DNA from: a virus
Virus record (IMG/VR): IMGVR_UViG_3300031673_000027
Length of the DNA stretch: 64,000 bases
Strand: one strand, 5' to 3'
Shown piece after piece: positions 6,287 through 56,996 of this stretch (position 1 is its first letter; each line of letters opens with the position of its first letter). The translations under genes and the position numbers were made by a program. The notes beneath the pieces were generated by a model. That model made no database searches and was not told the origin of the DNA. It worked only from the letters and a program-made list of their open reading frames with translations.

Positions 6287-6295
6287 TAAGCACTT

Positions 6296-6934: not shown

Positions 6935-6945
6935 AGGGGCATAAA

Positions 6946-41415: not shown

Positions 41416-41630
41416 TTGAACTCATCGGCACTATCTCGACCATCCTCGCCATTACAGGGGTGATCCTGAACAACAGGCGGCTCAGGGTGTGTTTTTTAGT
41501 GTGGCTGGTATCAAACAGCCTAACTTTAGTGATCCACGCCCAGACGGGCATCTGGAGCCTCGTGGCGCGTGACGCCATATTCCTGATTCTGGCCGTCGAA
41601 GGATGGTTCAAATGGAGGGCAAAGCCGTGA
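41412..41630 (+). CDS. small membrane protein (PnuC-like fragment?)
   Basis: Two or three hydrophobic helices. ATGA-coupled. Confidence 0.45.
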   Translation: MIELIGTISTILAITGVILNNRRLRVCFLVWLVSNSLTLVIHAQTGIWSLVARDAIFLILAVEGWFKWRAKP

Positions 41631-43024
41631 ACGAACAAAACGCCATGCAAGCTTTTACACTACGCCCCTATCAGGAAGCGGCTGTCAGTGCCGGTCTCGA
41701 CGCATTGAATACCCGCAAAAACGGCATCCTCGTACTGCCGACGGGCAGCGGCAAATCCCTCATCATCAGCGAGATAGCGCAGCGGGCCGGCGGTCGCTCA
41801 GTCATTCTCCAGCCCACCAAAGAAATCCTCGAACAGAACCTCGCTAAGATGAAGTGCTATGGCGTCCGGGACATCGGCATCTATTCCGCGTCCATGAACA
41901 AAAAGACCATAGGCCAAGTGACCTTCGCCACTATCGGGACGATCATCAAACGCAAGCACGCCTTCGAAGCCTTCGACCGGGTGATTGTGGACGAGTGCCA
42001 CCGCGTCAACTCCAAAGGCGGGCAGTACGAAGAGTTTATCTCACACCTGGGCCTGCCGACGATTGGCCTGACGGCTACTCCATACAGGCTTAGAAGCTAC
42101 CGCGACCAGATGGGTGAGCCGGTGGCCGAGAGCCGTATCCTCACGCGAACGAGGCCGCGAATCTTCTCGCGTATTGCCCACGTGACGCAACTACCAGAAC
42201 TCTTCGAGGCTGGCTATTTAAGCACCATCCATTACTCGCTTTGTGCCGACTACGATTCGCGTGAAATCCGGTCGAATAGTACGGGGCAGGGATACGATGA
42301 CGCTTCCCTGGAGCGATACAACCAGCAGAAGAGCATCCCCGACAAGATCGTCGCGGAAGTCGTGAAAGAGTCCTCGAAGCACATTCTCGCGTTCACGCCG
42401 TTTGTGAGCGAGTCGCAAGCGGTGGTCGAGAAGTTGAAATCGCGGGGCGTGTCTTGCCGGACCGTGACTGCTACGACCAGCAAAGACGACCGGGAGACTG
42501 TTATCTGGCGATTCCGCAGCGGCGAGATCCGATGTGTGGTCAACGTGGGTATATTTGTTCTCGGATTCGATTATCCCGAGCTCGACTGCATCATTCTGGG
42601 CAGGGTCACGAAGTCGGTAGGGCTTTACTATCAGATGGTCGGCCGCGGGATCCGCCCATATCCCGGAAAGAAGAACTGCAAGCTAATTGACCTGACCGAC
42701 AATGTGTCACGGTTTGGCCGGATAGAGACGTTTGTATTCTATGACCGCAACGGCAACGGCATGTGGCGGCTCAAGTCGAATGTGGGCCCGTTGACGGGCG
42801 TGGACGTGACGACTGGTACGGAACTTGAAAGCGTCAAAGCCAGACCGATTCCCAGCAACGATGAGACCTTAGTGATCCCCTTCGGCAAACACAAAGATCA
42901 GCCCATCAGCGAGGTCCCCACCGGCTATCTGCGGTGGGCGGTCGAGAACTTCGACAACAGCCAGTGGAAGTCAGCTTTCAGATTGGAAATTCAGAAGCGG
43001 CAGCAGGAAAAAGCAACAGTATAA
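41627..43024 (+). CDS. SF2 DEAD/DEAH-box helicase with a C-terminal DUF3820-like tail
   Basis: LRPYQ, Walker A LPTGSGKS, DECH, and C-terminal IPFGKHKDQPISEVPTGYLRW. The start is uncertain (41603, 41627 or 41645). Confidence 0.8.
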   Translation: MNEQNAMQAFTLRPYQEAAVSAGLDALNTRKNGILVLPTGSGKSLIISEIAQRAGGRSVILQPTKEILEQNLAKMKCYGVRDIGIYSASMNKKTIGQVTFATIGTIIKRKHAFEAFDRVIVDECHRVNSKGGQYEEFISHLGLPTIGLTATPYRLRSYRDQMGEPVAESRILTRTRPRIFSRIAHVTQLPELFEAGYLSTIHYSLCADYDSREIRSNSTGQGYDDASLERYNQQKSIPDKIVAEVVKESSKHILAFTPFVSESQAVVEKLKSRGVSCRTVTATTSKDDRETVIWRFRSGEIRCVVNVGIFVLGFDYPELDCIILGRVTKSVGLYYQMVGRGIRPYPGKKNCKLIDLTDNVSRFGRIETFVFYDRNGNGMWRLKSNVGPLTGVDVTTGTELESVKARPIPSNDETLVIPFGKHKDQPISEVPTGYLRWAVENFDNSQWKSAFRLEIQKRQQEKATV

Positions 43025-43043
43025 AACAGTGGAGCAAGGACGC

Positions 43044-44039
43044 ATGTACGTCATCACGGAATGGTTAGAGCGCTACGAAGTCAACGAGAAAGGCCAGCCC
43101 GCCAAACCCGGCGACAAGTTGCGCAACAGGCCCTTGGAATACATCCGCTCTAAGGTTCACGGACGCTCCCAGGGAGCCGGCTTCCTGGCCATGCAAATGC
43201 TGGCCGGCGACAGAGACTATGAGGTCTTTGGACTCTTCCAAAAATTCCTCGAAATCGCCGCTTGCGAAAAGGGGGAAAAGCGAGGTGCATTGCTCAATCA
43301 TCGGGGCCGTCCGGCCACTGTCGAAGAGGTCGCAACGATCTGCCGAAAGCCACTCGATAGGGTCCAATTTGCCATTGAGATTCTCACAAATCCAACAGTC
43401 GGCTGGATGGAAGAAGTCCCATTCCAGAAATTCCTGGAAATTCTGGAGAGCGGTAAGATAGATAAAGAAAGTGCAACCAATAACACAGGTGCTGGATTAC
43501 CGAAATTAACAAACGGCGATATTGATACCGAAAACAGGGTAAAACTCCAGAAAAATCTGGAGAGTGTGAATATGGGTAATAAAAATGACCATTCTCCAGA
43601 AAATTCTGGAGTGTTATATAAGGCTCCAGGACGCTTATATAACGAGAACGAAACGAAACGAGAACGAAACGAAACGGAACTAAACGAAACTACGCGTGCG
43701 CGCGCGCGCGCGCGCGAGGGACAAACCTCCGACGACCCACCTGCCGACGCAACGTCTGATTCGGCAATTGCTCGCGCGTCATCGTCCTCGGCCTCGTCTC
43801 GTCTCGGTTTCGGAAACAAGCTTCGAGAACTCTTGGGCCCCAAGACGAAGGAAGACCTGACCGCCCTGTGGAACCTCCAGCATTGGGCGGACCAACAGGG
43901 TGAGACCAGCAGTGCCGCTATTCTACAAATCGCCGAGGAGTCCAAGACTGGCCGCAAGCCGCTGGCGGTGTTTTTCTCCCGAGTGAAAGAGGAGCTGGGT
44001 TATCGACCACGAGCAGAAAGGGATAAGCAACATGCCTAA
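43044..44039 (+). CDS. putative replication initiator / replisome organiser (contains an ori-like region)
   Basis: Lies next to the helicase. Iterons, an AT-rich tract and simple repeats are embedded in its low-complexity middle, as in lambda O. No family was recognised directly. Confidence 0.45.
   Translation: MYVITEWLERYEVNEKGQPAKPGDKLRNRPLEYIRSKVHGRSQGAGFLAMQMLAGDRDYEVFGLFQKFLEIAACEKGEKRGALLNHRGRPATVEEVATICRKPLDRVQFAIEILTNPTVGWMEEVPFQKFLEILESGKIDKESATNNTGAGLPKLTNGDIDTENRVKLQKNLESVNMGNKNDHSPENSGVLYKAPGRLYNENETKRERNETELNETTRARARAREGQTSDDPPADATSDSAIARASSSSASSRLGFGNKLRELLGPKTKEDLTALWNLQHWADQQGETSSAAILQIAEESKTGRKPLAVFFSRVKEELGYRPRAERDKQHA
43421..43717. other. candidate origin of replication
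   Basis: Palindromic iterons CTCCAGAAAAATCTGGAG (43545-43562) and CTCCAGAAAATTCTGGAG (43594-43611), plus a composite copy at 43421-43450. These are followed by an AT-rich stretch, then about 10 AAC-phased units (43641-43692), then an alternating CG tract (43692-43717). Confidence 0.45.
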
Positions 44040-44454
44040 ACCGGAGAAGATTGCGAAAGAGATATTTCTGGCCTATGAGATCAGTCGCTCGCTCAGCCAC
44101 CGAGGGGTGAAGTGGTTCTGCCGGGCGCCAAGCTGGGAAAAAATCGATCGGGAGGCGATAGAGACTGAGGCCGGCCGGGTCAGGGACCGCTACGACGTAG
44201 GCTACGGCGATGGGCATATCATCATCCGACACTGGAATGAGCCAGCCGTGCGGGAGCGGTATATAGGCACTCGGCAGGAGTCGATGAGATTGCGGGATCT
44301 GGCGTTCGATGAGATTTTGGAGGGACCGGACAATAAGACCCGGAAGTTCCTTGACTTGTATCTCTCACGCAAGACAACAATGACACCTAAGTCGCACACA
44401 AACCAAGAGCCTGTACATATTGGGCAAGCAGCATCAGAGAGCTTGCCGTTTTAA
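44032..44454 (+). CDS. hypothetical protein
   Basis: 140-aa ORF overlapping the upstream stop by 8 nt. Confidence 0.5.
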   Translation: MPKPEKIAKEIFLAYEISRSLSHRGVKWFCRAPSWEKIDREAIETEAGRVRDRYDVGYGDGHIIIRHWNEPAVRERYIGTRQESMRLRDLAFDEILEGPDNKTRKFLDLYLSRKTTMTPKSHTNQEPVHIGQAASESLPF

Positions 44455-44489
44455 GATTTTCAAGAAGCTAATAAAAAAGGGAACCAAAT

Positions 44490-45419
44490 ATGAACCAGGA
44501 ACTGATAGACAAAGCGATTAATCTTAATGAGGCTAAGGCCGTTGTTCGTATGGGCAAAAAAGCATACGAGGCCCTTAGAGCGGTAGAACAAACTCCAACA
44601 GGGGCCGAGCAATTACTGTTTGAGGCATGTCATTTTTTAGAAAAGGCCCTTTCCCTGCTCGAATCCGCGAAGGCCGAGCCGGAGCCGAGCAACTTTCGTG
44701 CGGAGTGTGCGGAAATTCGAGAGATTTACCTAAACGAGCCAGCCAAAACACTGGAAGCGGGGCATTGGCTTGTTAGAAGATTGGCAGGGCAATTAGCTAA
44801 AGGTTGTGACGAGATCGACCGCCTGACCGCCGAACTTGCCAAGGCACAAGAACCTGCGTCAGCATCGCAACGGCTTTACAAAAAAATGGCGACTGAATTA
44901 GCGAAGGAGAACAAGGCCCAGGCCGAGCGGATAGCCGCATTGGAAGAGGCTGTCGTCTCCGGTTGTTGCTCCCATAGCGTACAAACAAAGGTGGACGAAG
45001 ATGGCTGCTGCATAAGTTGCGGCGAGAACTTGAATTGTTGGTTTGAGCTGGTCGCTCGCAATGACCAATTAGAGGCCGCGAACAAGATTCTCAAAGCTGA
45101 AGCAGAAGGGGCGGGTTCGCTTTTACTGGATGTGCAACAAGAATGTATTCGCCTGACCGCCGTGAACAAGCGATTGCGCGATCAAACGGATTGCGAAACC
45201 GAGAGCGGCGGGATTCGTTGTATCGAGCAAGAGGATAAGATTCTGGCCCAGGCCGAGCGGATAGCGGAGTTGGAGCGGGAACTGCTCGAACGCGGTAGTC
45301 ACGCAATTGGTTGTCAAGTCGAATGGCTTACGGAAGATGAACACCCAGAGTGTAACTGCGGTTGGGACGCCCGCAAGAAGGAACTTGAGCAGGCCCTGGG
45401 AGGGCAGACGACATCATGA
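44490..45419 (+). CDS. coiled-coil protein with Cys clusters
   Basis: 309 aa with repeated AQAERIAALEE / AQAERIAELER segments. Confidence 0.55.
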   Translation: MNQELIDKAINLNEAKAVVRMGKKAYEALRAVEQTPTGAEQLLFEACHFLEKALSLLESAKAEPEPSNFRAECAEIREIYLNEPAKTLEAGHWLVRRLAGQLAKGCDEIDRLTAELAKAQEPASASQRLYKKMATELAKENKAQAERIAALEEAVVSGCCSHSVQTKVDEDGCCISCGENLNCWFELVARNDQLEAANKILKAEAEGAGSLLLDVQQECIRLTAVNKRLRDQTDCETESGGIRCIEQEDKILAQAERIAELERELLERGSHAIGCQVEWLTEDEHPECNCGWDARKKELEQALGGQTTS

Positions 45420-45616
45420 GGCTCTGTTATTGGGATTCGATTTACGGCATTCACCCACCAGAACTGGCGTATCGGCCCGACGATGAGGTCGGCACTATCG
45501 ACTCTGATGGTAACTGGATTTGCGACAGGTGCAAGGCTAAGTACGAGAAGGCCAAAGCGCAAGCCTTAGCAGACAGTAGGGCGGCGCGGGCCAGGACCAG
45601 AAAGGGGCAAACGTGA
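45416..45616 (+). CDS. hypothetical protein
   Basis: ATGA-coupled. 66 aa. Confidence 0.45.
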   Translation: MRLCYWDSIYGIHPPELAYRPDDEVGTIDSDGNWICDRCKAKYEKAKAQALADSRAARARTRKGQT

Positions 45617-46197
45617 GACTTGAATTTTTCATCCCCGGAATGGCTCGCTCTGCCGGCAGTAAGAGTGCCTTCAAGAACGCCAATACGGGCAAGATCATCG
45701 TGACGCACGCGAATCCGAAAACAAAGGAGTGGATGAACAGTGTCAAGTGGTTTGCGATGAAGGAGACGAACCGGATGGTGCCAGTGACTGAGGCGGTTCG
45801 TCTATCCCTGGCGTTTGTCAAGCCCAGACCGAAGAATCACTACGGGAGCGGCCGCAATGAAGGCGTGCTCAAATCATCGGCGCCACAGCACGCGACGACG
45901 GTGCCCGACCTGACCAAACTGACCCGAGCCGTCGAGGACGCCCTGACGGGGATCGTCTGGCGCGACGATTCCCAAGTGGTGCAGCAAGTCACAGAAAAAC
46001 GTTACTGCCGAGGCGAGGAAAAGCCCGGCGTATATGTCACTATCGAAACGATGGAAGAAAGAAAGGATCTGTACTATGACAAGGACGAAAGAGCAAGACG
46101 CAATCAAAACGACACACGAAACACGAACGCTCAAGTGCCAGTTGACGGACCAGGAAATCCGGGAAGCCTCGGATTGTTTGGCGCGGAGTCTCGATGA
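45613..46197 (+). CDS. rusA: RusA-family Holliday junction resolvase
   Basis: PDLTKLTRAVEDALTGIVWRDDSQVV matches the RusA catalytic region. The last 40 or so codons overlap the next gene. Confidence 0.75.
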   Translation: MRLEFFIPGMARSAGSKSAFKNANTGKIIVTHANPKTKEWMNSVKWFAMKETNRMVPVTEAVRLSLAFVKPRPKNHYGSGRNEGVLKSSAPQHATTVPDLTKLTRAVEDALTGIVWRDDSQVVQQVTEKRYCRGEEKPGVYVTIETMEERKDLYYDKDERARRNQNDTRNTNAQVPVDGPGNPGSLGLFGAESR

Positions 46198-46465
46198 AAT
46201 CGAAATGCTGGAAGACGAGCAGCAGAAAATAAAGTCGGACTTCAAGGCCCAGATCGAAGCAAAAGAAGCGGCGACTCGCGTACAAAAGAACCTGGTGCGT
46301 GACAAGTATGCCTTCCGGTCTGTGCGGTGCAGTCTTACGCAAAACTATTCTACCTTGAAAGTCACAGTGACGCGAGAAGACACCGGGGAAGTAATTAGCG
46401 AACGTCCGATGAGCGAGGAAGAGAAGCAACTGAAAATGCCGTTCGATGGTGAGGAAGAATCGTAA
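46076..46465 (+). CDS. hypothetical coiled-coil protein with an acidic C-terminus
   Basis: ATG at 46076. 129 aa. Ends ...KMPFDGEEES. Confidence 0.5.
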   Translation: MTRTKEQDAIKTTHETRTLKCQLTDQEIREASDCLARSLDEIEMLEDEQQKIKSDFKAQIEAKEAATRVQKNLVRDKYAFRSVRCSLTQNYSTLKVTVTREDTGEVISERPMSEEEKQLKMPFDGEEES

Positions 46466-46538
46466 ACGGGCCGGGCGATAAGAAAGGCGGCGGATAGGAC
46501 AATAGACTTTGGGTGATGGCTTGAAAGAAACAGGCTAT

Positions 46539-46623
46539 GTTACGTTGCGTTTCGTTTCGTTCAGTTATGTTGTGTTTTGTTGAGTTCAGTTGCGTTCGGT
46601 TATGTTGCGTTAAGTTAAGTCTT
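46539..46623 (+). repeat. (GTTNN)17 phased pentanucleotide array 1A
   Basis: G at 46539 and then every 5 nt without a phase slip. 16 GTT units plus a terminal GTC. Confidence 0.95.
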
Positions 46624-46652
46624 TTGAACCGAGGGCGAACGAAACAAAATGG

Positions 46653-46742
46653 GTTGAGGTCCGTTGAGTTTGGTTTTGTTCCGTTAGGTTGAGTTCTGTT
46701 GAGTTGGGTTTTGTTTAGTTGCGTTAAGTTAAGTTCAGTTTT
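46653..46742 (+). repeat. (GTTNN)18 phased pentanucleotide array 1B
   Basis: 17 GTT units plus one GGT, with no phase slip. It ends 23 nt before the ATG at 46766. Confidence 0.95.
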
Positions 46743-46765
46743 TGACAATCGAAAGGAGTACCAAA

Positions 46766-47371
46766 ATGGCTAAAGAAAAAGTAGAAACGATGACGCCGGT
46801 AGTGCTGTGTTGTGACCTTGTCTCCGCAGGGCCGCTGCTGTACGGCAAGCGGATTATGAGCGCCGACATGGAGGGCGAATCCCCGGAAGCAAAGGAAGAA
46901 CGCGCCTGGAGAGAGCGGATGCACGTCGATGACCAGGGCTGTCTGTTCATTCCGAACATTGCCCTCAAAAAAACGCTGGCGAATACCGCGAAGTATTTGA
47001 GCGAGAAGGTTCCGGGCAAGGGGCAGGCGACATACAGCAAACACTTCGCCTCCGGAATCATGGTGATCGAACCCTTGCAGCTCGGTATCAAGGCAAAGGA
47101 CATCCAGGGGACGCCCATGTTGGTGCCAGCCCAGCCGAGCAAGCCCAAAGGGGCACAAGTGACGCGAATCTTTCCCATCATCGCACAGTGGAAAGCGAAA
47201 GCCGAGATTATCGTACTGGACCCCGTCCTCTTGAGTCACATGGATAAGGTCGAACAGTACGTGGTGTTTAGCGGGAAGTTCATCGGCCTGCTCGGCATGC
47301 GCGTGGGCAATGGCGGGCAATTCGGCAGGTACAGCGCCGAGAACTTCCGCGTCAAGACGATGCTGGAGTGA
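46766..47371 (+). CDS. hypothetical protein flanked by GTTNN arrays
   Basis: GAAAGGAG RBS. 201 aa. No family recognised. Confidence 0.65.
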   Translation: MAKEKVETMTPVVLCCDLVSAGPLLYGKRIMSADMEGESPEAKEERAWRERMHVDDQGCLFIPNIALKKTLANTAKYLSEKVPGKGQATYSKHFASGIMVIEPLQLGIKAKDIQGTPMLVPAQPSKPKGAQVTRIFPIIAQWKAKAEIIVLDPVLLSHMDKVEQYVVFSGKFIGLLGMRVGNGGQFGRYSAENFRVKTMLE

Positions 47372-47388
47372 TAGAGTGACATGCGTAA

Positions 47389-47463
47389 GTTGTGTTTGGT
47401 TGAGTTCGGTTACGTTCTGTTTAGTTGGGTTCTGTTACGTTAGGTTGCGTTGAGTTTCGTCTT
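47389..47463 (+). repeat. (GTTNN)15 phased pentanucleotide array 2A
   Basis: 14 GTT units plus a terminal GTC, with no phase slip. Confidence 0.95.
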
Positions 47464-47487
47464 TCGAGGGCGAACGAAACAAAATGC

Positions 47488-47572
47488 GTTGGGTTTCGTT
47501 TCGTTTTGTTCAGTTATGTTGAGTTCTGTTGAGTTCAGTTGCGTTCGGTTACGTTGCGTTAAGTTAAGTCTT
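47488..47572 (+). repeat. (GTTNN)17 phased pentanucleotide array 2B (homologous to 1A)
   Basis: 16 GTT units plus a terminal GTC. The spacer dinucleotides largely match array 1A. It ends 20 nt before the ATG at 47593. Confidence 0.95.
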
Positions 47573-47592
47573 TTTTTGAAAGGAGCCTTATC

Positions 47593-48129
47593 ATGGCAGA
47601 GAAACAAAAAACAGAGGCGAAGCGGCGGGGGCCGTTTGAGCTATCGAGTGACGCGAGGATTCTCTACAACGTCCTGGAGACAGCGCTCATCAAAGAAGGC
47701 AATGAGCTGGCCAGCTACCAGCAGCTTTCGGCGGCCATTGGCCGGGACGTTCAAAAGGACGCCAGGGGACTGTTAGCAACGGCTCGCCGTCTCGTCCAGA
47801 ACGAGCACAAAATTCTCTTAGAGGCGGTGCAGAATACGGGCATCAAACGCAGCGACGATTATGAGGGCGCTGCCGATAAGACGCGCGAGCACGTGCGTCG
47901 AACCATCAAACGCAGGGCCAAAGAGATCGGGCAAGCCATAAACGGCAAAGACGTCACACCCATACTGGCGGCCAAGCTCAGTATCATGAACGTGATAATG
48001 CTCTTCAGCCAGACGAAGGCGCCGCAGCGCCTTATCGAGACGATTCAGCAGCGCAAACTTAAGGAGCTATCGACGGCCGATACCTTGCGATTGTTCCAGC
48101 CTGAATCAAAAGCAAATCAAGACAAATAG
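47593..48129 (+). CDS. hypothetical protein, possibly winged-helix DNA-binding
   Basis: GAAAGGAG RBS. The segment ASYQQLSAAIGRDVQKDARGLLATARRLV looks like helix-turn-helix, but the assignment is weak. Confidence 0.55.
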   Translation: MAEKQKTEAKRRGPFELSSDARILYNVLETALIKEGNELASYQQLSAAIGRDVQKDARGLLATARRLVQNEHKILLEAVQNTGIKRSDDYEGAADKTREHVRRTIKRRAKEIGQAINGKDVTPILAAKLSIMNVIMLFSQTKAPQRLIETIQQRKLKELSTADTLRLFQPESKANQDK

Positions 48130-48181
48130 CCGAAGAATGAGCAAACAGACACAAACGTTTATCAGAAAGGAGCACAGATTT

Positions 48182-48727
48182 ATGGACACAACACTAACCC
48201 AAAACATTGAAGGCGTGACAATCACCTACGCGATGATGGTTCTGACGATAGGCGTAGCCCTGTTCGTGGAGCTGGCTAAGGTGATTCTCACTGGCTTCGC
48301 CTGGTTCACCGACGATCTGAGAAAGCCGCTGCTGCCGCTGCTCAGTATCGCCGTGACGATGGCCGTGTTTCGCGCTACGGGCCAGTCGAGTTGGCTCTTA
48401 GGCGGCGTCATTCTCGGCTGGTCGGCCTCGGGCGGCTATAGTTGGGTGGCCGGCATATTGGAGACAGTCGGCCTGAAGAGCAGACCCTTCCTGCCGATCA
48501 TCCTGGTCCTTTGCGGGCTGTTCGTCGCCGGCTGTGCCGACAAGATTCTCAGTCCTGCCGAGCAGCTTGAGTTCCAAATGTTCAACGTGCGCGTGCAGGA
48601 CTGGAACGAGCAGTGCATCGCGGACCCCAACCAGTGCGCTCAGGGACTGGCGAATATGGCGGCCGAAATGCAAACGTGGATGGGCGTCATCGTCGCTGAG
48701 CCCAATAGCCTGGGGGTGACGCCATGA
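48182..48727 (+). CDS. multi-pass membrane protein with an internal lipobox-like motif
   Basis: AAAGGAG RBS before the ATG at 48182. 3-4 hydrophobic helices, then LFVAGCADK. Confidence 0.5.
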   Translation: MDTTLTQNIEGVTITYAMMVLTIGVALFVELAKVILTGFAWFTDDLRKPLLPLLSIAVTMAVFRATGQSSWLLGGVILGWSASGGYSWVAGILETVGLKSRPFLPIILVLCGLFVAGCADKILSPAEQLEFQMFNVRVQDWNEQCIADPNQCAQGLANMAAEMQTWMGVIVAEPNSLGVTP

Positions 48728-49062
48728 CCCGGGCTTATTACTGGCTAAAAATAGTTTGGCTAAGTTTCAAGTGGATGTTCAGAATTAACCTCGGTGACAA
48801 AGTTACATTGAAGACTGATACCTGGCCGCACACTTACTATGTTGCCAATGGTGTGTGTCCGGGTTCATGGAAGATTCGTTCTTGCGATTCTGAAGGAAGG
48901 ACGATTGAAGCGGCTCCGCGAAAAGACTGCAAGAAGGTCTGGACCGTTCAGAATTGTCTTCACAGTTTCAAGTTTCGTTACGGGTTTTACATGGGTTACT
49001 GGTTTGATATCTGGTGCAGGAACGGGATCGAACCGTGGATGAAAAAATGTAACATTTGGTAA
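48724..49062 (+). CDS. hypothetical Trp/Cys-rich protein
   Basis: ATGA-coupled. 112 aa. Confidence 0.5.
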   Translation: MTRAYYWLKIVWLSFKWMFRINLGDKVTLKTDTWPHTYYVANGVCPGSWKIRSCDSEGRTIEAAPRKDCKKVWTVQNCLHSFKFRYGFYMGYWFDIWCRNGIEPWMKKCNIW

Positions 49063-49079
49063 CCAAGTAAGGAGAATAC

Positions 49080-49400
49080 ATGACGACGAAACAATTCATT
49101 GCAGACTTACCCTTCGGCCAGCAAGACTTGGCCCGCCTCTATCTGCCGGTGCTGATGCGATGGGTCAACGAGTCGAACTGGGACATCGTGAGAAGCGCCC
49201 TATACGCACAGTCGCAAGTCTCATGGTACCGGGCGGTGCGCAAACGCATGACTACAAGCGAGCGGCTGGCCGACGATAAGCGGGCCCGAGAGTGGCTCAG
49301 GGCCATGAGCAAGAGTAGGGCCGAGCGGGTTCGCGTCGAGCGCAAGGCCGTCCAGGCTGTCATTACGAAGTTGCTCACAGTACTGCTGACGAAGTTGTGA
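49080..49400 (+). CDS. hypothetical protein
   Basis: AAGGAG RBS. 106 aa. Confidence 0.55.
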   Translation: MTTKQFIADLPFGQQDLARLYLPVLMRWVNESNWDIVRSALYAQSQVSWYRAVRKRMTTSERLADDKRAREWLRAMSKSRAERVRVERKAVQAVITKLLTVLLTKL

Positions 49401-49415
49401 GAAGGTCACTTACGC

Positions 49416-49616
49416 ATGGCATCGAGCTTGATCTGGACCGGAGTACGCTTCATTGCGACATGGAGGTTGCGAGTCAATACCTATCGCGCGGATGTGGATA
49501 TCGCCAAAGAGCCGCGGGTACTAGCCGAGCGTATCGCCTACGAGGAACGCCGGCACGACGGACTGCCGAGACAATGGGAACCCATATTTGTTATGGACGG
49601 CGAAGATGACTCATAG
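49416..49616 (+). CDS. hypothetical protein
   Basis: 66-aa ORF. An alternative overlapping frame exists at 49397..49609. Confidence 0.35.
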   Translation: MASSLIWTGVRFIATWRLRVNTYRADVDIAKEPRVLAERIAYEERRHDGLPRQWEPIFVMDGEDDS

Positions 49617-49694
49617 TGTTTCTCTTTTTGAAAGCTCCCGCCTGGTCAAGCCCAGGGCTGGGCTGGAGCGACTTTGTTCGGAGACAGATAAACG

Positions 49695-50048
49695 ATGAAA
49701 ATATCGAAAGCCTATTTCAATCGCTTCAAGAAGGAGTTTCTGCGGTGGCAGCATCTGCTCGGCCTGACGCAATACTCTATTGCCTTCTTCCATGAATATT
49801 TTGATAACGAGTATGCCCACATTGTCATCAGGGAAGATGGCAAAATGGCAGACGTGTTTCTGACTACGAAACTGATTGGCAGGTCACTTCAGGCCGATAC
49901 CGGCCCCGAGTCCCACGCCAAGCATGAGGCCATACACCTCTTGCTGCACCGGTTGCACTGGTTGGGAGCATCGCGTTATATTGAAACGACGGACTTAAAT
50001 GAGGAGTGGGAAGCGATTGTTGTACGTTTGGAAAAGGTGCTAAAATGA
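49695..50048 (+). CDS. hypothetical protein with an HExxH motif (possible metallopeptidase)
   Basis: HEAIH within KHEAIHLLLHRL. Otherwise unassigned. Confidence 0.45.
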   Translation: MKISKAYFNRFKKEFLRWQHLLGLTQYSIAFFHEYFDNEYAHIVIREDGKMADVFLTTKLIGRSLQADTGPESHAKHEAIHLLLHRLHWLGASRYIETTDLNEEWEAIVVRLEKVLK

Positions 50049-50638
50049 AAAACGAAATCAAAATTGCCTGTAAGGGTTCACGCCTCGAGTTGCTGTCAAA
50101 GCTCGAAATCATTCAGGGCGACTTGAAGGACCTGTCCCCTGAGAACTTCGCCAAGCTGCGAAAGCGCATTGAGACCAAAGGCTTCGACGCCCCGTTCTTT
50201 GTCTGGCAGAATAAGATTCTGGATGGCACACAGCGCAAGCGCGTTCTCGACGCCATGCTGGCTGATGGCTGGAGTTTGCCGCGCGGCAAGGTTCCTGTCT
50301 GTGATATCGAGGCCGAGAATCTTGACCAGGCCAAAGACAGGCTACTCGGCTACGTGTCACAGTACGGCAAGGTCACAGACATCGGTTTCGACGCTTTTGT
50401 AGCTTCGATAGAATGGCCGGATTTGAGTACGATTGAAATTCCGGTGGAAGTCACTGAGCGATTGGACGATATGACCACAGAGGGTCGAGAGCTTGATTAT
50501 AAGCAATGGGACCTCAAGCCTTACAAAAAAACCCATGTGCTCTTGAGTTTTCCGCCGGAATTATTTGCACGTATCGAAGAGCATCTTGAGAAAATTATTG
50601 CCATAGAGGGCATCGAGTATGAACAAGGCAGCAACTAA
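50045..50638 (+). CDS. ParB-like nuclease domain protein
   Basis: ATGA-coupled. ILDGTQRKRVL resembles the ParB N-terminal DGxxR motif. Confidence 0.55.
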   Translation: MKNEIKIACKGSRLELLSKLEIIQGDLKDLSPENFAKLRKRIETKGFDAPFFVWQNKILDGTQRKRVLDAMLADGWSLPRGKVPVCDIEAENLDQAKDRLLGYVSQYGKVTDIGFDAFVASIEWPDLSTIEIPVEVTERLDDMTTEGRELDYKQWDLKPYKKTHVLLSFPPELFARIEEHLEKIIAIEGIEYEQGSN

Positions 50639-51185
50639 AACCGACAACAGCTATTTAGAAATGAAGGTCCGGCTCCGCATGGATAATCTGCCGGAGGGCT
50701 CTGAGCTTGATGTTCTGGATTGCTTCTCTGGTGACGGTTTGATATGGCGCGAAGTTCAGAGGCAGGCAAGAGACAAACGTCTGCACGTACTCTCGTTAGA
50801 CCGCAAGCCGAGTTTAGGCAAACTGCATTTGGTCGGTGACAACAGAAAGTTTCTGTCCAGCATGGACCTCCGCAAGTTTGATGTGATTGACTTGGATGCC
50901 TACGGAACCGACTTGGGTGCAATGAAGCTGGTTCTGCTCAAACCACGAAGGCCCGGCGCTGTTGTGTTTGGCACTTTTATTCAATCCGTTATGGGTTGCT
51001 TGACCTACGCGATGCTGACCGAATTGGGTTACACGCGGACTATGGTTCAGAAGATACCTACGCTCTTCTATCGCAACGGGCGGGCCAAATTGCTGGCTTG
51101 GCTGGCCGATAATCGCATAAAACAGGTCAAAATGTACTCTACCGCGGATGGGCGAAAGAACTATTTCAGTTTTGTGTTGCCGTAA
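50619..51185 (+). CDS. SAM-dependent methyltransferase (Trm1-like fold)
   Basis: VLDCFSGDG (motif I-like) and FDVIDLDAYGT (resembles the DxDPFG motif). Confidence 0.5.
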   Translation: MNKAATKTDNSYLEMKVRLRMDNLPEGSELDVLDCFSGDGLIWREVQRQARDKRLHVLSLDRKPSLGKLHLVGDNRKFLSSMDLRKFDVIDLDAYGTDLGAMKLVLLKPRRPGAVVFGTFIQSVMGCLTYAMLTELGYTRTMVQKIPTLFYRNGRAKLLAWLADNRIKQVKMYSTADGRKNYFSFVLP

Positions 51186-51237
51186 AGATTGTTCCTATGC
51201 AGGTTTATAAAAAAAGCATAAAAGCAGCAGTTTTTCC

Positions 51238-51266
51238 TCGACAAAAGTACTCTAAGTCGTTATGAT
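51238..51266 (+). promoter_or_regulatory. putative promoter (TCGACA-17 nt-TATGAT)
   Basis: Same -10 hexamer and spacer length as the promoter at 27111. Lies in an AT-rich gap before 51315. Confidence 0.45.
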
Positions 51267-51314
51267 ATAGGTAGTTATGAACGATTTACTAGCTACTTTT
51301 GGAAGGAAAGAAAC

Positions 51315-51956
51315 ATGAACGCATTGTACGAGACCTATCGACCGAAACGCTGGGCAGATGTCAAGGGACAGATGGCCGTGGTCAATCAGATCAGGCAACT
51401 CAAGAAAAAAGGGATCGGCGGGCGGGCCTTCTGGATATGCGGCCATTCAGGGACAGGCAAAACAACGATTGGCCGGTTATTGGCGGCAGAGATCGCCGAC
51501 GACTGGTTCGTTGAGGAGTACGATAGCGGCGAGGCATTTACTCTTGAGGTCTTTGAGAATATCGAGCGCAACATGCACTTGTATGGCGGTGGCAAGGGCG
51601 GGCGCGCTTATATCATCAACGAGGCCCACGGCCTTCGAGTATGGATGATTCGCCGTTTGCTCGGGCTGCTCGAACGTCTTCCGAATCATGTCGTTTTTGT
51701 TTTCACCACGACGAAGGCCGGTCAAACTGGTTTGTTTGAGCAACAACTCGATGCAGGGCCGCTGTTGAGTCGGTGCGTTTATTTGTCGCTGGCCAATAAC
51801 TCACATGTGACGCGGGCCTTTGCCCGGCGAGCAAGAGAGATTGCCAAGGCAGAAGGGCTGGATGGCCAGTCGATGCAGGCATATCTTCATCTTGCGGCTG
51901 AATGCAAAAACAATATGCGTCAGATGTTGCAGAAAATCGAAGTTGGGAATATCTGA
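51315..51956 (+). CDS. AAA+ ATPase, clamp-loader (DnaX/RFC)-like
   Basis: YRPKRWADVKGQ...ICGHSGTGKTTIGRLLA and Walker B-like YIINEAH. Confidence 0.65.
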   Translation: MNALYETYRPKRWADVKGQMAVVNQIRQLKKKGIGGRAFWICGHSGTGKTTIGRLLAAEIADDWFVEEYDSGEAFTLEVFENIERNMHLYGGGKGGRAYIINEAHGLRVWMIRRLLGLLERLPNHVVFVFTTTKAGQTGLFEQQLDAGPLLSRCVYLSLANNSHVTRAFARRAREIAKAEGLDGQSMQAYLHLAAECKNNMRQMLQKIEVGNI

Positions 51957-51970
51957 AAGGAGTTGATTCT

Positions 51971-52726
51971 ATGTCGGTGATCTACGAACCAAAAGGCCGG
52001 GCCCTGGAGTATTCCTGGCTGGCCTGTAATCTCTTCAGCGGGTGCGTTCACGGGTGTGCTTACTGCTACGTCCCGAATGCACTCCACAAGACTACAAAGG
52101 AATTTCACGCTAACGCTACGCCCCGGCGTGCAATTTTGGAAGAGCTACGAAAAGACTGCATCAAATTTGCGGGGACGAAGAAACGGCTACTTCTCTGCTT
52201 TACCTGTGACCCATATCCACCGCGAGACATGGAAATGGGTATCACGCGGGAGGCCCTACTGATTCTGCGAGAGCATAAAATTCCCTTCCAGATCCTGACG
52301 AAAGCTGGCACGCGGGCCTTGCGAGACTTTGACCTCTACGGACCCAATGACGCTTTCGCTACGACGTTGACCTATCTTCAGGACGACGGCAAGTCTCTTG
52401 AGATTGAACCCGGCGCCGCCTTGCCTTCGGACAGAATCCGGGCGATACGAGCGGCGAAGAAACAGGGGCTTACGACATGGGTTTCTCTCGAACCAGTGCT
52501 GGACCCCGATGAATCTCTGATGTGCATCGAAGAGACTCACAAGATAGTGGACCTCTACAAAATCGGCAAGCTCAATCATCGAAGCAGTGATACCGATTGG
52601 CGGCAATTTGGAACGGATGCCATCAGGCTTTGCGAAAGCTACGGTGTCCCCTACTATGTGAAGACCGATTTGGCCGAATACCTCAAGGGCGTCAAATTCA
52701 AGAACACGGAGAGCCGATCAATATGA
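51971..52726 (+). CDS. radical SAM protein
   Basis: CxxxCxxC cluster (SGCVHGCAYCY) near the N-terminus. GGAG RBS. Confidence 0.7.
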   Translation: MSVIYEPKGRALEYSWLACNLFSGCVHGCAYCYVPNALHKTTKEFHANATPRRAILEELRKDCIKFAGTKKRLLLCFTCDPYPPRDMEMGITREALLILREHKIPFQILTKAGTRALRDFDLYGPNDAFATTLTYLQDDGKSLEIEPGAALPSDRIRAIRAAKKQGLTTWVSLEPVLDPDESLMCIEETHKIVDLYKIGKLNHRSSDTDWRQFGTDAIRLCESYGVPYYVKTDLAEYLKGVKFKNTESRSI

Positions 52727-53103
52727 CAGTTATCGTTGATGACAGACGTGAACGCATTTCCCTCTGTGGCATGGAGCCTCCCGTGTTCCTCCAGCTTACG
52801 GCGATTATCCGGCTGGCGACACGGCATCGCAATCCGCAGGTTCGGGCCGTGGCGATGGAGTTGCATCTAAGCTCGCACTGGATTCTGGACACCACGCGGC
52901 CGGGCCTGCCGTCGATAACGCTGGCCGATCTGAATTGGGAAGAGCTGTTTACACTAACGGCGGTCATTACCGAGTTGCTGACGGCGACGGGGCCGTGCAG
53001 GATGCGGCCGCTGATCGAGGAAATTCTGCGAGGGCTGGACGCCGCGGTCGAAAGCTCGTTGCGCAGAGATACTGGTCTTGCAAGTGGACGATTTCACAGA
53101 TAA
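52723..53103 (+). CDS. hypothetical protein
   Basis: ATGA-coupled to the radical SAM gene. Confidence 0.45.
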   Translation: MTVIVDDRRERISLCGMEPPVFLQLTAIIRLATRHRNPQVRAVAMELHLSSHWILDTTRPGLPSITLADLNWEELFTLTAVITELLTATGPCRMRPLIEEILRGLDAAVESSLRRDTGLASGRFHR

Positions 53104-53127
53104 GCTAACGCTTTGGTGGAACCGAGT

Positions 53128-53478
53128 ATGGCCAAGATAAAAGCAGGGATGCTGGACCCGCAACTCAAAGACGCCGTCACGTCGGCGTACAAGCTCGGGA
53201 TGATGGACGGCGAGAAGAAGCACTGCAAAGAGTGCCGCAACAAGCTCATTAGCGCCATGACGACGACGAACGCTAATCTCTGGGAGATCCTCAATGACCT
53301 CGACAAGACAGAACCCATCGAGGGGCTTGTGTTATCGTTCAAGGACGCCGAGGATATAATCGCCGCGTTGCGCAGCGGCAAGCGAAAGACGAAGCTCGCC
53401 AATATCCTGCGGCGGCGAGTCAGAGAATCGAGCCAGGGGCTGCGTTTATTCCTGGCAGAGGTACAGCAATCGGAGTAG
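53128..53478 (+). CDS. hypothetical protein
   Basis: 116-aa ORF. Confidence 0.45.
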   Translation: MAKIKAGMLDPQLKDAVTSAYKLGMMDGEKKHCKECRNKLISAMTTTNANLWEILNDLDKTEPIEGLVLSFKDAEDIIAALRSGKRKTKLANILRRRVRESSQGLRLFLAEVQQSE

Positions 53479-53517
53479 AATCACGAACAAAGAATAGACT
53501 ACTGAAAGGGTTGAATT

Positions 53518-54009
53518 ATGAGCAGAGATATTACCTGGGGCGAATTGAAAAAGGCAGCGGAAGAGCAGGGCGTTGAAGATAGCAGGGTCTTCATTCATAG
53601 CGAGGACGAAGATCCGTTTGTCTTTCCCCCCTATCCGGCGTACCTTTGCCATTCCGTTTCACTGGAAAACAACTCAAACGACGCCGTCAGACTTCTCAGG
53701 CGAGTAGTCGCAGCCCTCGACCATAAAGACAGCATACACCCAGAATCCGTATGCCATGAAATACTAAGGACCAGACTGTCTGCGATTGATGCATCCGAAT
53801 CAACCGAGCGGCTCGAATCTGCCGAGTGCGATCCCTTCATCATCAAGAGAATCCACGAGGCACAGAAAGAGCTCAACGCTGCTCTGCTGGAAGCGGCCCT
53901 GCACGGTATCGAAGCGACGGGGATACAGCCTTACGAGATTCAGATGGTCGATGCACCAACAACCGTTCGCTCTTTCAGGCTTATCCTCAAGCCGTCCAAG
54001 GTGCTATAG
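53518..54009 (+). CDS. hypothetical protein
   Basis: AAAGGG RBS. 163 aa. Confidence 0.5.
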   Translation: MSRDITWGELKKAAEEQGVEDSRVFIHSEDEDPFVFPPYPAYLCHSVSLENNSNDAVRLLRRVVAALDHKDSIHPESVCHEILRTRLSAIDASESTERLESAECDPFIIKRIHEAQKELNAALLEAALHGIEATGIQPYEIQMVDAPTTVRSFRLILKPSKVL

Positions 54010-54054
54010 CTATGAAACAATCGGGGTAGGATATGGGGCGAAAGGAGCAACGAT

Positions 54055-54288
54055 ATGGTTTTTATCTTTGAGATTGATCTGACGCGCCGCAATGGTTCCC
54101 GATTTCCTTGGAAGCCAACCCTGTTCAAGACATGGTGGACACAGGCAAAAAAATCTTGGCGGATAGGTTGGGGGATTTTTGCACTAAGTTACTATCCCAA
54201 TTCGGGTCTGAGAGATTTCGGCGAGTCTCTGAAAACCAAATCATGGCAAAGTGTCCAATGTCACAGAACGGACTTACCCTCGAAGTAG
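54055..54288 (+). CDS. hypothetical Trp-rich protein
   Basis: Strong GAAAGGAG RBS 7 nt upstream. The competing frame at 54108..54299 lacks an RBS. Confidence 0.4.
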   Translation: MVFIFEIDLTRRNGSRFPWKPTLFKTWWTQAKKSWRIGWGIFALSYYPNSGLRDFGESLKTKSWQSVQCHRTDLPSK

Positions 54289-54377
54289 TGAGGAAGTAAC
54301 GCACAAACCCTTCCCACATACGCCCTATAGCCACTCTCAACTCAAGCATTTCCCCCCTTTCTGCCGTAAAACTGGTC

Positions 54378-54578
54378 ATGGCCAGTGACGGCGACAATCC
54401 GAACGTCAATATGTTCCCGCTGGAGTCGGCGGAGAACAGCATCAATGAGACTATGCGCAACCTCTTGAGCATCGAACCGACCGACGATACCCAGGCCGAA
54501 CTCAAGAATATGTGCATCGCCGACCTCAAGGAATTTCAGGATGGGAACCTGTTCGCCTTGCGGAGGGCGATTGAATGA
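54378..54578 (+). CDS. hypothetical acidic protein
   Basis: Coupled by ATGA to the small terminase gene. Confidence 0.4.
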   Translation: MASDGDNPNVNMFPLESAENSINETMRNLLSIEPTDDTQAELKNMCIADLKEFQDGNLFALRRAIE

Positions 54579-55132
54579 GTGGGCGCCGGGCGAGCAAATA
54601 CGGGACGCACATCGAGCCGAACCTCGATGTGATCATGGGCTGGATGCGCAGCGGCATGACGGAGAAGAGCATCGCTAAGAGCCTCGGCGTGGGCGTTTCG
54701 ACGTGGGAGCATTACAAGGCGACCAAGCCGGAGTTTCGTGAGCATATCCGCAAGGCCCAACAGGACATCGGCGCGCTGGCTGTCAACAACCTACTCAAAC
54801 GCGCCAACGGGTACGACTACGACGAAATCACAACCGAGATCACAGATGGGAGCAACCAGCGTCAACAGGCACAGACCGGCAACCAGCGTCGCGTGATCAA
54901 AAAAGTCACCAAGCACATGCCCCCGGACGTTGGGGCCAACTGCGTGATCCTCTTCAATCGCATGGCCAAATACTGGCAGAACACTCAGCACATTCAACAC
55001 AGCGGCGAGATCAAGGGATCGGGCGTCCTATGCACAGCGCCGCCGATGGACAAGGAAGCATGGCTACAGTTTTACAAAGACCGAGTCGCCAACGGCAACG
55101 GCGAGGCGAAAGAGCAGACGGACCCAGCGTAG
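54575..55132 (+). CDS. terS: terminase small subunit
   Basis: N-terminal HTH-like segment (MTEKSIAKSLGVGVSTWEHYK). Lies directly upstream of terL. Confidence 0.7.
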   Translation: MSGRRASKYGTHIEPNLDVIMGWMRSGMTEKSIAKSLGVGVSTWEHYKATKPEFREHIRKAQQDIGALAVNNLLKRANGYDYDEITTEITDGSNQRQQAQTGNQRRVIKKVTKHMPPDVGANCVILFNRMAKYWQNTQHIQHSGEIKGSGVLCTAPPMDKEAWLQFYKDRVANGNGEAKEQTDPA

Positions 55133-56490
55133 TCTGGGCGCCCCAGCCCGGCAGCCAGCAGGCGTTTGGGGCCTGTCCGATTTTCGAGTGCCTCTACGAG
55201 GGGACACGCGGGCCCGGCAAGAGCGATGCTCTGCTGATGGACTTCGCGCAGTTTGTTGGGAGAGATTACGGGGAGGATTGGAAGGGTATTATATTCCGCA
55301 GGCAATATCCCGACTTGGAAGAATTGATTGTCAAATCGAAGAAATGGTTTAGGCGTATTTTTCCAGGGGCAGAGTACAACAAAGGAGACCACCGCTGGGT
55401 ATGGCCGGACGGCGAAATGCTGTTGTTCCGCTACGGCAAGAACATGGACGACTACTGGAATTACCACGGTCACGAATATCCCTGGATCGGCTTTGATGAG
55501 TTGACGCTATGGCCCAATGACGAATTCTATATTGCGATGCGAACGGTCTGTCGGTCCACGAATCCCAATATTCCGCGTCACTTTCGGGCGACATGCAATC
55601 CATACGGAACTGGCCACAACTGGGTAAAGATGCGATTCATCGACCCAGCGCCGCGGGGAATAGTTGTGCGGGACGATGAGGGCATCGAACGGGTTGCGGT
55701 TCACGGGTCTATCTCGGAGAATCTGATTGTCCTGCAGAACGATCCGGCCTATGTCAAGATGCTCAAATCACAAACTGGCGTCCGCCGCAAGGCATGGCTC
55801 GAAGGCGACTGGAACATCGTTGCTGGCGGCATGTTCGATGACGTGTGGGACCCCGATGTTCACGTGGTGCAACCCTTCGAGATCCCGGAAACTTGGTATA
55901 TCGACCGCTCTTTCGACTGGGGCAGCTCGAAGCCCTATGCCGTCGGCTTCTGGGCCGAGTCGGACGGCAGCGATGTGAGATTGCCGGGCGGCACCATACG
56001 CAGCACGCAGCGCGGCGATCTGTTCCGCATCGCTGAGTTGTACGGCTGGACGGGCAAGCCGGACGAAGGGACAAAAGAGTTGGCCGTCGAGGTGGCGCGA
56101 AAGATCGTCAATTTCGAGAAGGTGCTGGGCCGGCGCATTCACCCGGGCTCGGCCGATTCCTCGATCTTCTCTACGCAAAACGGCATGTGCATTGCCGAGG
56201 ACATGGCGAAGCTCGGCGTTCGATGGAACCCCTCCGACAAGAAAGCCGGCAGCCGCACAAACGGATGGGAACTCATGCGCAAGCGATTCAAGAACTGCGT
56301 TGTCGGGGAAGGGCCGGGCCTCTATGTGTTCGATACCTGCCGGCAATTCATCCGAACGGTGCCGGCGCTTCCGCGTGACAGCCGCAACACGGACGACGTA
56401 GATACAGAGACCGAGGACCATGTTGCGGACGAAACGCGCTACCGCGTACTGACAAAACGCTACACGTTGAATGTACGACAAGCAGGTTAA
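55030..56490 (+). CDS. terL: terminase large subunit
   Basis: Walker A YEGTRGPGKSD and the nuclease-region pattern ATCNPYGTGHNWVK. The start is uncertain (55030 or 55060) and overlaps terS. Confidence 0.9.
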   Translation: MHSAADGQGSMATVLQRPSRQRQRRGERADGPSVVWAPQPGSQQAFGACPIFECLYEGTRGPGKSDALLMDFAQFVGRDYGEDWKGIIFRRQYPDLEELIVKSKKWFRRIFPGAEYNKGDHRWVWPDGEMLLFRYGKNMDDYWNYHGHEYPWIGFDELTLWPNDEFYIAMRTVCRSTNPNIPRHFRATCNPYGTGHNWVKMRFIDPAPRGIVVRDDEGIERVAVHGSISENLIVLQNDPAYVKMLKSQTGVRRKAWLEGDWNIVAGGMFDDVWDPDVHVVQPFEIPETWYIDRSFDWGSSKPYAVGFWAESDGSDVRLPGGTIRSTQRGDLFRIAELYGWTGKPDEGTKELAVEVARKIVNFEKVLGRRIHPGSADSSIFSTQNGMCIAEDMAKLGVRWNPSDKKAGSRTNGWELMRKRFKNCVVGEGPGLYVFDTCRQFIRTVPALPRDSRNTDDVDTETEDHVADETRYRVLTKRYTLNVRQAG

Positions 56491-56510
56491 ATAGAAAGAC
56501 TACCACGAAG

Positions 56511-56798
56511 ATGAAAACAAATGGCGGACTGAAATGGACCTTGGGCATTATTGCGGTCATCGGTTTGTTGCTGACACTGGCCGCTACGGTGTGGAACGCA
56601 TCCCAGATTGCTGGCGCGGTCGAAGCAAACTGCAAAGACGACGCCAAATACCACCTTATGGCCGAGACCAATAAAGATGCGATTATCGGTATGAACAAAG
56701 ATATTGAAAGTATTCAGAGGGACATCGCTACGCAGACCATCATCCAGCAGAAGATCCTGACGAGTCAGGAAGCGATGCTCAAAGTGATCCGGCAATAA
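56511..56798 (+). CDS. membrane-anchored coiled-coil protein
   Basis: One N-terminal transmembrane helix followed by a helical region. Confidence 0.45.
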   Translation: MKTNGGLKWTLGIIAVIGLLLTLAATVWNASQIAGAVEANCKDDAKYHLMAETNKDAIIGMNKDIESIQRDIATQTIIQQKILTSQEAMLKVIRQ

Positions 56799-56816
56799 GG
56801 TTTTCAGGGAGCCGCT

Positions 56817-56990
56817 ATGGGCTGCAAGAAAGTCGAACGAACATCCGCCTTAGAGCAGGCGCAACGCCGGCAGGATGTCCAGGACGTGATCGTGAGTGAC
56901 ATCGAAGAGGCGCGTCTGAGCGTATTGGTCCGCGAGGGCGTCATCGTGGAGGCGCGAACCCAACAAGAGATCGAAAGTGCAAAGGTGTAA
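56817..56990 (+). CDS. hypothetical protein (57 aa, below the ORF-track cutoff)
   Basis: AGGGAG RBS. Fills the gap before the portal gene. Confidence 0.35.
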   Translation: MGCKKVERTSALEQAQRRQDVQDVIVSDIEEARLSVLVREGVIVEARTQQEIESAKV

Positions 56991-56996
56991 AAGACA

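Follow-up and report, generated by a model that had tools for sequence, protein, structure and literature searches.

The virus record analysed here (IMG/VR IMGVR_UViG_3300031673_000027) very probably carries a Viral Interference Programmable Repeat (VIPR) locus at positions 46466-48129, made up of a vipr gene, a vap1-like accessory gene and four vrRNA genes that flank vipr in two pairs, in a form whose constant handle is GUU. Throughout, 'the window' means the full stretch of 64,000 nucleotides (nt), and coordinates are counted from its first letter. VIPR is a CRISPR-like form of RNA-guided gene silencing described in two 2026 preprints (bioRxiv 10.64898/2026.04.26.720920; bioRxiv 10.64898/2026.04.26.720927). 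Its parts are a minimal phage-encoded RAMP protein (Vipr), an accessory vap gene and vrRNAs that flank vipr, the published vrRNAs being intergenic and consisting of 9-16 GGY/NN pentanucleotide repeats followed by an invariant 3' tail (10.64898/2026.04.26.720920). Cryo-electron microscopy (cryo-EM) places one Vipr protomer on each repeat, with GGY sequestered and NN presented; pairing of the NN bases with DNA passes over every third base of the target and silences transcription (10.64898/2026.04.26.720927). Competing phages, prophages and satellites are the natural targets, and the NN bases of the phage phiSUSP1 were shown by experiment to be a reprogrammable guide (10.64898/2026.04.26.720920). 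VIPR, whose characterised systems are all GGY-type and form two clades, has been proposed to be older than CRISPR. The kind of system is one already known, with the GUU handle as a variant form of it. A first-pass annotation made from the letters of the DNA alone had described the arrays and stated that they matched no described element, a statement now overtaken by these preprints.

The GTTNN arrays and the Vipr protein

Parsing of 46300-48300 in 5-nt steps reproduced in full the arrays of the first-pass annotation, down to their starts, unit counts and constant phase. The repeat tracts of the putative vrRNAs 1A, 1B, 2A and 2B lie at 46539-46623 (17 GTTNN units), 46653-46742 (18 units), 47389-47463 (15 units) and 47488-47572 (17 units), all on the plus strand, which is also the strand of the genes, as had been claimed. 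GTT is present in 63 of the 67 units, the exceptions being the terminal GTCTT of 1A, 2A and 2B and a GGTCC at unit 2 of 1B, and none of the four arrays contains an internal phase slip. Across the four arrays the unit columns hold 2.0 (G), 1.78 (T) and 1.74 (T) bits, followed by 0.02 and 0.05 bits at the two N positions. The arrays are genuine and far above chance: (GTTNN)3GTT with at most one mismatch is matched 60 times in the window against 0.21 expected, with a maximum of 2 in any of 100 dinucleotide-preserving shuffles of the window. Arrays 1A and 2B are identical at 27 of their 34 NN positions and on sequence grounds are paralogous copies, in line with the earlier description. The GGYNN tracts of phiSUSP1 (our locus L205, 27500-28030) likewise contain a degenerate unit here and there, GTTAA and TGTCT for example, and lone off-consensus units like the GGTCC of the window are therefore normal for vrRNAs. 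Folding of each of the four array-plus-tail RNAs gave z-scores of -0.8 to +1.0, like those of shuffles, with no stable fold, which is consistent with the VIPR reading, and a search of 43000-49000 against Rfam at E ≤ 1 returned no match.

Between the two array modules lies vipr (46766-47371, plus strand), which encodes a 201-residue single-domain RAMP of Cas7/Csm3-like type. Its AlphaFold (AF2) model has a predicted local distance difference test (pLDDT) score of 90.8, and in a Foldseek search of the PDB the top matches of this model are entries for type VII and type III-A Csm effector complexes or Csm3 itself, with 8z4j_J best (E 7e-8), 6ifl_F and 6xn3_F also matching, and template modelling (TM) scores of about 0.55-0.6. 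In the viral structure library BFVD the model matches a 'Cas system-associated RAMP superfamily protein', and our family alignment (A1) contains a C-terminal glycine-rich loop (G-loop), GKFIGLGxFRPRNGGxYGRF, that is typical of RAMPs. As judged from its predicted structure, then, the product of 46766-47371 is a Cas7-like RAMP, and beta-hairpins of the model suggest a thumb. Vipr proteins are small, of about 20 kDa, and combine a single RNA recognition motif with a glycine-rich loop and a thumb. Comparison of A1 with the Vipr of phiSUSP1 by hhalign gave a probability of 97.1% and an E of 5.5e-11 over 167 columns, near end to end and including the G-loop, at about 19% sequence identity; the phiSUSP1 gene itself (L205 28474-29061, minus strand) was found in its GenBank record through its GGYNN arrays. 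Comparisons against GenBank phages returned no match, whether by tblastn of the RAMP protein or by blastn of the 7.5-kb region, and sequence searches of Pfam, PHROGs, NCBIfam and the PDB with the RAMP and the 178-residue protein encoded downstream gave nothing usable. The family is well conserved and has no Pfam domain. Residues 44-53 of Vipr (46895-46924) form the motif E-x-R-x-W-R-E-R-x-H, in which W48, R51 and H53 are invariant in 33 members; the strongly conserved WRERxH portion is absent from phiSUSP1 Vipr.

Directly downstream, the vap1-like accessory gene (47593-48129, plus strand) encodes that 178-residue protein, with an N-terminal part of winged-helix topology and a helical C-terminal part. 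The AF2 model (pLDDT 88) has the element order H-E-H-H-E-E, a winged helix and then helices, and the protein probably binds DNA. In about 70 of 83 loci a member of its family adjoins vipr, as a rule as the next gene downstream. Nucleotide identity between the window and locus L206, its closest relative, is 91.6% for vipr and 69% for the vap-like gene, and the accessory gene thus evolves much faster.

Relatives, NN turnover and the constant triplet

The first-pass annotation had proposed a virome search for GTTNN runs of at least ten units. Run against IMG/VR, such a scan for ten units returned mostly perfect 5-mer microsatellites, and filtering by NN entropy left about 27 contigs with high-entropy GTTNN arrays like those of the window, often several per locus; in 13 of the 27, profile searches place homologues of the 201-residue reading frame between or beside the arrays. 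A search that started from the protein found relatives of the window Vipr on 205 IMG/VR contigs, and the 80 loci kept from these contigs form our locus survey. In at least 59 of the 80, arrays with a period of 5, three of the positions fixed and two free, stand beside vipr on the strand of the genes. The triplet need not be GTT: the period of 5 is kept with other triplets in L121, where (GACNN)25 stands between the Vipr homologue and the next gene, and in L120, which has (GTCNN)n. A scan of genomes for Vipr relatives found only six contigs of metagenome-assembled genomes (Planctomycetota, Dehalococcoidales, archaea and others).

The closest relatives, L206-L208, allow the rates of change within the locus to be compared. 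Their Vipr is 93% identical to that of the window in protein and 91.6% in nucleotide sequence, with 79% identity at four-fold degenerate sites. In L206 the leader, the GAGGGCG-type tails and the first 20 nt beyond the vipr stop codon are kept, as is every GTT, and the NN positions of L206 agree with those of the window arrays at 46-61% at best in ungapped registers. Unit counts of 9 and 27 occur in L206 against 17 and 18 in the window, and vipr is flanked there by 2+4 arrays as against 2+2. The NN positions are thus the fastest-evolving of the locus, beyond the four-fold synonymous sites of vipr, while the triplet is frozen. Turnover of NN, units and arrays above the synonymous rate, with triplets and tails kept, argues that the NN positions carry diversifying information and are not neutral spacers, and variable NN beside a frozen triplet is the pattern reported for vrRNAs. 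By analogy with those RNAs, the two 'free' bases of each unit would be guide information. The first-pass annotation had called the spacer bases essentially free; by VIPR homology, however, they would not be free of meaning, being hypervariable guide bases.

Conservation also extends to the sequences around the arrays. The leader upstream of array 1A (46466-46538, plus strand) is 82% identical to its L206 equivalent, compared with 49% for the upstream gene region, and may be a promoter or a site of 5' processing. The putative 3' tail of vrRNA 1A (46624-46652, plus strand) contains the conserved CGAGGGCGAACGAAACAAAATG, 22 nt that are identical in both modules (after 1A and after 2A), which bears out the shared spacer reported earlier; the corresponding tail of vrRNA 2A (47464-47487, plus strand) reads TCGAGGGCGAACGAAACAAAATGC. 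The other two tails run up to the genes. That of 1B (46743-46765, plus strand) overlaps the ribosome-binding site of vipr (TGACAATCGAAAGGAGTACCAAA), and L206 carries a related tail, CGAAAGGAG, at the equivalent position; that of 2B (47573-47592, plus strand) overlaps the ribosome-binding site of the vap-like gene (TTTTTGAAAGGAGCCTTATC) and is nearly identical in L206. The first and second modules end 23 nt and 20 nt ahead of the ATGs at 46766 and 47593, respectively, again as first described. The tail core GAGGGCG is kept in L206-L208, and CGAGGG is found in L209. In L120, three (GTCNN)n arrays at 5920-7346 each stand ahead of one of three consecutive genes, and the tails before the first two genes are nearly alike, AAC[A/G]CAAGGGAAGTTTTTTTTAAGGAG, and lead into the Shine-Dalgarno sequence. 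In several systems, then, the tail seems also to serve as the ribosome-binding region.

Across the survey the constant triplet is diverse. Among the 80 loci the arrays use GGC in 24, GAC in 10, CAC in 8, GTT in 8 and CGC in 4; GTC and CTC occur in two loci each, and CGA, ATT and AGC are also found. A pyrimidine occupies the third position of all triplets but one, which fits the purine-excluding Y3 pocket of the published structure (10.64898/2026.04.26.720927). In a Vipr similarity tree clustered at 50% distance, the GTT and ATT loci are split among four separate groups, and the triplet is thus not monophyletic. The G-loop varies together with the triplet. All 24 GGC loci have FIG[IML]GRF, the Arg of that motif is absent in 9 of the 10 GAC loci, and FIGLL[GSRA][MFW]R is present in 10 of 11 GTT and ATT loci but in none of 52 other loci; the Fisher p values for this covariation, 9e-11 and 2e-7, overstate independence because the loci are related. 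The covarying positions, three residues of the G-loop (47266-47341 in the window), align with G176, D177 and W178 of phiSUSP1 Vipr, and D177 and W178 are contacts of G1 and G2 in the phiSUSP1 cryo-EM structure (10.64898/2026.04.26.720927).

These observations lead us to suggest, tentatively and with somewhat less than even confidence, that the constant triplet, rather than being a fixed GGY hallmark, is a 'handle code' that switches rapidly and is read by the glycine-rich loop of Vipr. A Gly-to-Leu change (FIGLL..) may have re-specified the handle to GUU in the window phage and in at least three other groups, and GAC, CAC and CGC, among other triplets, may go with G-loop variants of their own. 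With distinct handles, VIPR systems that are co-resident or in competition could be prevented from taking up one another's guides. The GTTNN locus and some 60 related viral loci share one architecture with at least ten constant triplets, and the G-loop residues are concrete candidates for what determines acceptance of a guide scaffold by Vipr. If this proposal is true, mutually orthogonal pairs of Vipr and guide would be available for multiplexed programmable repression, and the guide scaffold itself would be evolving fast in phage-against-phage conflict. The shared architecture also yields an annotation rule, by which strictly phased XYZNN arrays beside a reading frame of about 200 residues with GxGxFRPR..G.YGRF mark a VIPR locus.

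Mechanism, evidence against and rival explanations

By analogy with phiSUSP1, we infer how RNA expression and processing, filament assembly, the 1-nt-skip rule, silencing and the choice of targets would work in this phage. Each array with its tail of about 20-30 nt would give an RNA of roughly 100-115 nt, on which Vipr protomers would polymerise, one per 5-nt repeat. The G-U-U of each repeat would be buried in pockets formed by the glycine-rich loop, the thumb and the RNA recognition motif (RRM), leaving two exposed variable bases per repeat to pair with double-stranded target DNA, with one target base skipped per repeat. The bound filament would then block transcription of a competing phage, prophage or satellite.

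Several points weigh against the assignment to VIPR. The constant triplet is GUU in the window and GGY, as YNNGG repeats, in published VIPR, and neither GUU nor GTT occurs in the text of either preprint, figure S17 excluded. If the registers are homologous, the window triplet keeps G1 and Y3 and has U in place of G2. The text of the first preprint does refer to 'a related consensus' and to the alternative patterns NNNGG, YNNNG and NNNNG (10.64898/2026.04.26.720920); as far as that wording goes, a string of GUU repeats satisfies 'YNNNG' in a shifted register and may fall in a published class. The proteins differ as well. The window family lacks some 15 residues that follow strand 1 in phiSUSP1 Vipr, R138 of phiSUSP1, which contacts G2, is replaced there by Phe, and geometry and decoding could therefore differ. 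From the residue numbers, the phiSUSP1 region of which part is missing would include helical-bundle contacts near the skipped target base, and the window Vipr family could decode its targets with a geometry other than the published 1-nt skip. For the accessory gene, the hhalign match of the family alignment (A2) to phiSUSP1 vap1 is modest (probability 92%, E 6.4e-7), and Foldseek of the vap-like model gave nothing significant (E ≥ 0.05), most matches being winged-helix repressors. A plus-strand scan for promoters and terminators recognised none, including no sigma-70-type promoter at the leader, and folding of the array-plus-tail units gave no significant structure for the tails.

The failure to find a natural target belongs on the same side of the balance. 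The lack of a self-target, by contrast, is consistent with VIPR: within the window, skip rules of 0-2 nt gave none, the best match reaching 22 of 36 NN positions, which is background level. In searches tolerant of mismatches, matches of the window guides to the window and all fetched loci (skips of 0-3), and of 112 guides from related loci to 1.8 Mb of sequence (skips of 0, 1, 2 and 4), were likewise at background, and guides of the sister phage had no target above background in the window. Our scans of databases used exact seeds of 9-10 units only: in IMG/VR, such seeds (1A/2B; two from 2A; two from 1B; 2B) under a 1-nt skip found no target, and a seed scan of metagenomes gave 45 seed-only matches, the best agreeing at 27 of 34 NN positions, which is chance level.

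The absence of a target from the guide searches would suit a different explanation, in which the arrays are binding sites for the RAMP on its own mRNA and serve a TRAP-like autoregulation of vipr and the downstream gene, with no guide role. In its favour, either module closes with an array that stops 20-23 nt short of a start codon and whose tail overlaps the Shine-Dalgarno sequence, and between the vipr stop codon and array 2A no space for a terminator or promoter is visible, so that the arrays are probably on the operon transcript. We give this explanation little credence, because NN, unit numbers and array numbers outpace the four-fold synonymous sites while triplets and tails stay, and because the homologous phiSUSP1 system uses its NN as an experimentally reprogrammable guide. 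The arrays may have an extra cis-regulatory effect beside a guide role. Very little credence goes to the idea that the arrays act as DNA, be it as iterons, as centromere or operator arrays or as the dense primase (GTT) sites of an origin. Its attractions are the nearby genes for a helicase (41603-43024) and RusA (45613-46197), a short inverted GTT tract 2.9 kb upstream and the winged-helix topology of the downstream protein. Yet the arrays are tied to a Cas7-like RAMP in at least 59 loci across gene contexts (terminase in L121 and L209; AAA_24 and DUF669 in L120), their orientation relative to the genes is constant, and the triplet (GGC, GAC, CAC and others) tracks the G-loop of the RAMP and no primase or initiator. 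Primase sites, moreover, would leave the hypervariable NN and the link to the RAMP gene unexplained. The operator or centromere arrays suggested in the first-pass annotation find no counterpart in the gene content: the flanking genes encode a RAMP and a winged-helix-type protein, and the 20 open reading frames (ORFs) scanned at 41603-58424 had no match to partition families (ParA, ParM, TubZ-type), one of them, 51315-51956, giving nothing beyond generic AAA/P-loop matches below threshold.

There is scarcely any likelihood that the arrays encode a minus-strand pentapeptide-repeat protein (LNxTQ-type), although a 117-residue minus-strand ORF (46395-46748) does run through module 1 and a 55-residue ORF through array 2B. 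The 117-residue ORF has no intact counterpart in L206, where the lengths and numbers of the arrays differ, and the minus-strand pentapeptide-repeat ORF was rejected for this lack of conservation. Related loci carry triplets that would encode quite different peptides. With a period of 5 nt, one strand and two information-free positions, the GTTNN constraint is not a codon constraint. L206 keeps every GTT and no frame through the arrays is conserved, the opposite of the conserved coding frame that the first-pass annotation had named as grounds for giving up its view; on comparison of these sequences the arrays are non-coding, as it had thought probable.

Genomic setting and comparison with known systems

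The window belongs to a tailed phage: besides the RusA and helicase already mentioned, it encodes the large subunit of a terminase and a DUF4055 protein that is probably the portal. VIPR systems are for the most part carried by viruses or proviruses. The vipr-vap pair of the window follows RusA in a replication and recombination region, unlike in L121 and L209, where a lambda-type terminase large subunit (GpA) is encoded two genes downstream of the pair; from this difference in placement, the vipr module appears to be mobile between genome neighbourhoods. No Pfam match to cas families was found among the 20 neighbouring ORFs scanned, and a tandem-repeat scan of the window revealed no CRISPR-like repeats. 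The inverted GTT run of the first-pass annotation is indeed present, as the sole further GTTNN run in the 64 kb (6 units, minus strand, 43661-43690). It is part of a short (GTTNN)-like tract (43641-43690, minus strand) made of a 16-nt tandem repeat, (GTTTCGTTTCGTTCTC)x3, with +1 slips, inside an ORF of 336 residues (43029-44039) with no family match. With little diversity at NN and no GAGGG-type tail behind it, this tract was not counted as a vrRNA. One of its 9-mers, GAACGAAAC, recurs in both vrRNA tails, and a (CG)12 run (43693-43716) directly follows the tract; the feature at 43641-43716 as a whole may be an origin, a coding low-complexity repeat, a decayed vrRNA or a decoy. Elsewhere in the window, 51315-51956 has sub-threshold, generic AAA/P-loop matches and the adjacent 51902-52726 a radical-SAM domain, and these genes (51315-52726) may be a nucleotide or DNA-modification module. 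A tandem repeat with a 69-nt unit (5.3 copies, 89% matches) opens the window at 1-376 and runs into a coding ORF (69-755), which probably encodes a repeat-containing structural protein.

Among known systems, R1 parC/ParR and the omega heptads resemble the window arrays in having contiguous short direct repeats that flank gene starts. Their repeats are longer, however, the whole unit is conserved and the ligand is duplex DNA bound by ribbon-helix-helix (RHH) dimers, whereas in the window only three of five positions are held constant and the arrays are linked to a RAMP that binds RNA. The TRAP-trp leader RNA (11 (G/U)AG triplets at 2-3-nt spacing) shares with the window the combination of triplet and spacer with one subunit per repeat. 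Yet TRAP has an unrelated fold and forms a closed ring, as opposed to the open helical filament that homology predicts for a RAMP; its spacers carry no information, where those of the window are the hypervariable part; and it regulates its own operon, where a VIPR system would act on foreign DNA. The first-pass annotation had invoked ring- or filament-forming binders of a triplet with a 2-nt spacer, with TRAP as its example. A filament-forming binder of this kind is what the homology of the RAMP to phiSUSP1 Vipr points to, but TRAP is an analogy only and the binder is not TRAP-like.

Class 1 CRISPR-Cas systems (types I, III and VII, with Cas7/Csm3 on the crRNA) are closer, since their backbone protein has the same fold as the window Vipr and, by homology, one RAMP protomer would sit on each short RNA segment with thumb-induced base flipping. 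They differ in a period of 6 nt without sequence specificity, as against 5 nt with a sequence-specific constant triplet, and the window system would use a non-contiguous, phage-encoded guide with neither a CRISPR array nor a cas set in our scans. The closest likeness is to the type II VIPR of phiSUSP1 (Vipr, vap1 and GGY/NN vrRNAs). Array lengths depart from the published 9-16 units, with 15-18 in the window, 27 in L206 and 34 in L147; the tails of the window are unrelated in sequence to those of phiSUSP1, whose clade has a tail pseudoknot, and gave no significant fold; and the G-loop reads GLLGMR in the window Vipr and GVGDWR in phiSUSP1. Both systems nevertheless lack a self-target, and both combine a phage host, a small single-domain RAMP with full-length profile homology, an adjacent vap1-like gene and pentanucleotide arrays of three constant and two hypervariable bases, which fill the intergenic regions to either side of vipr and lead into conserved tails.

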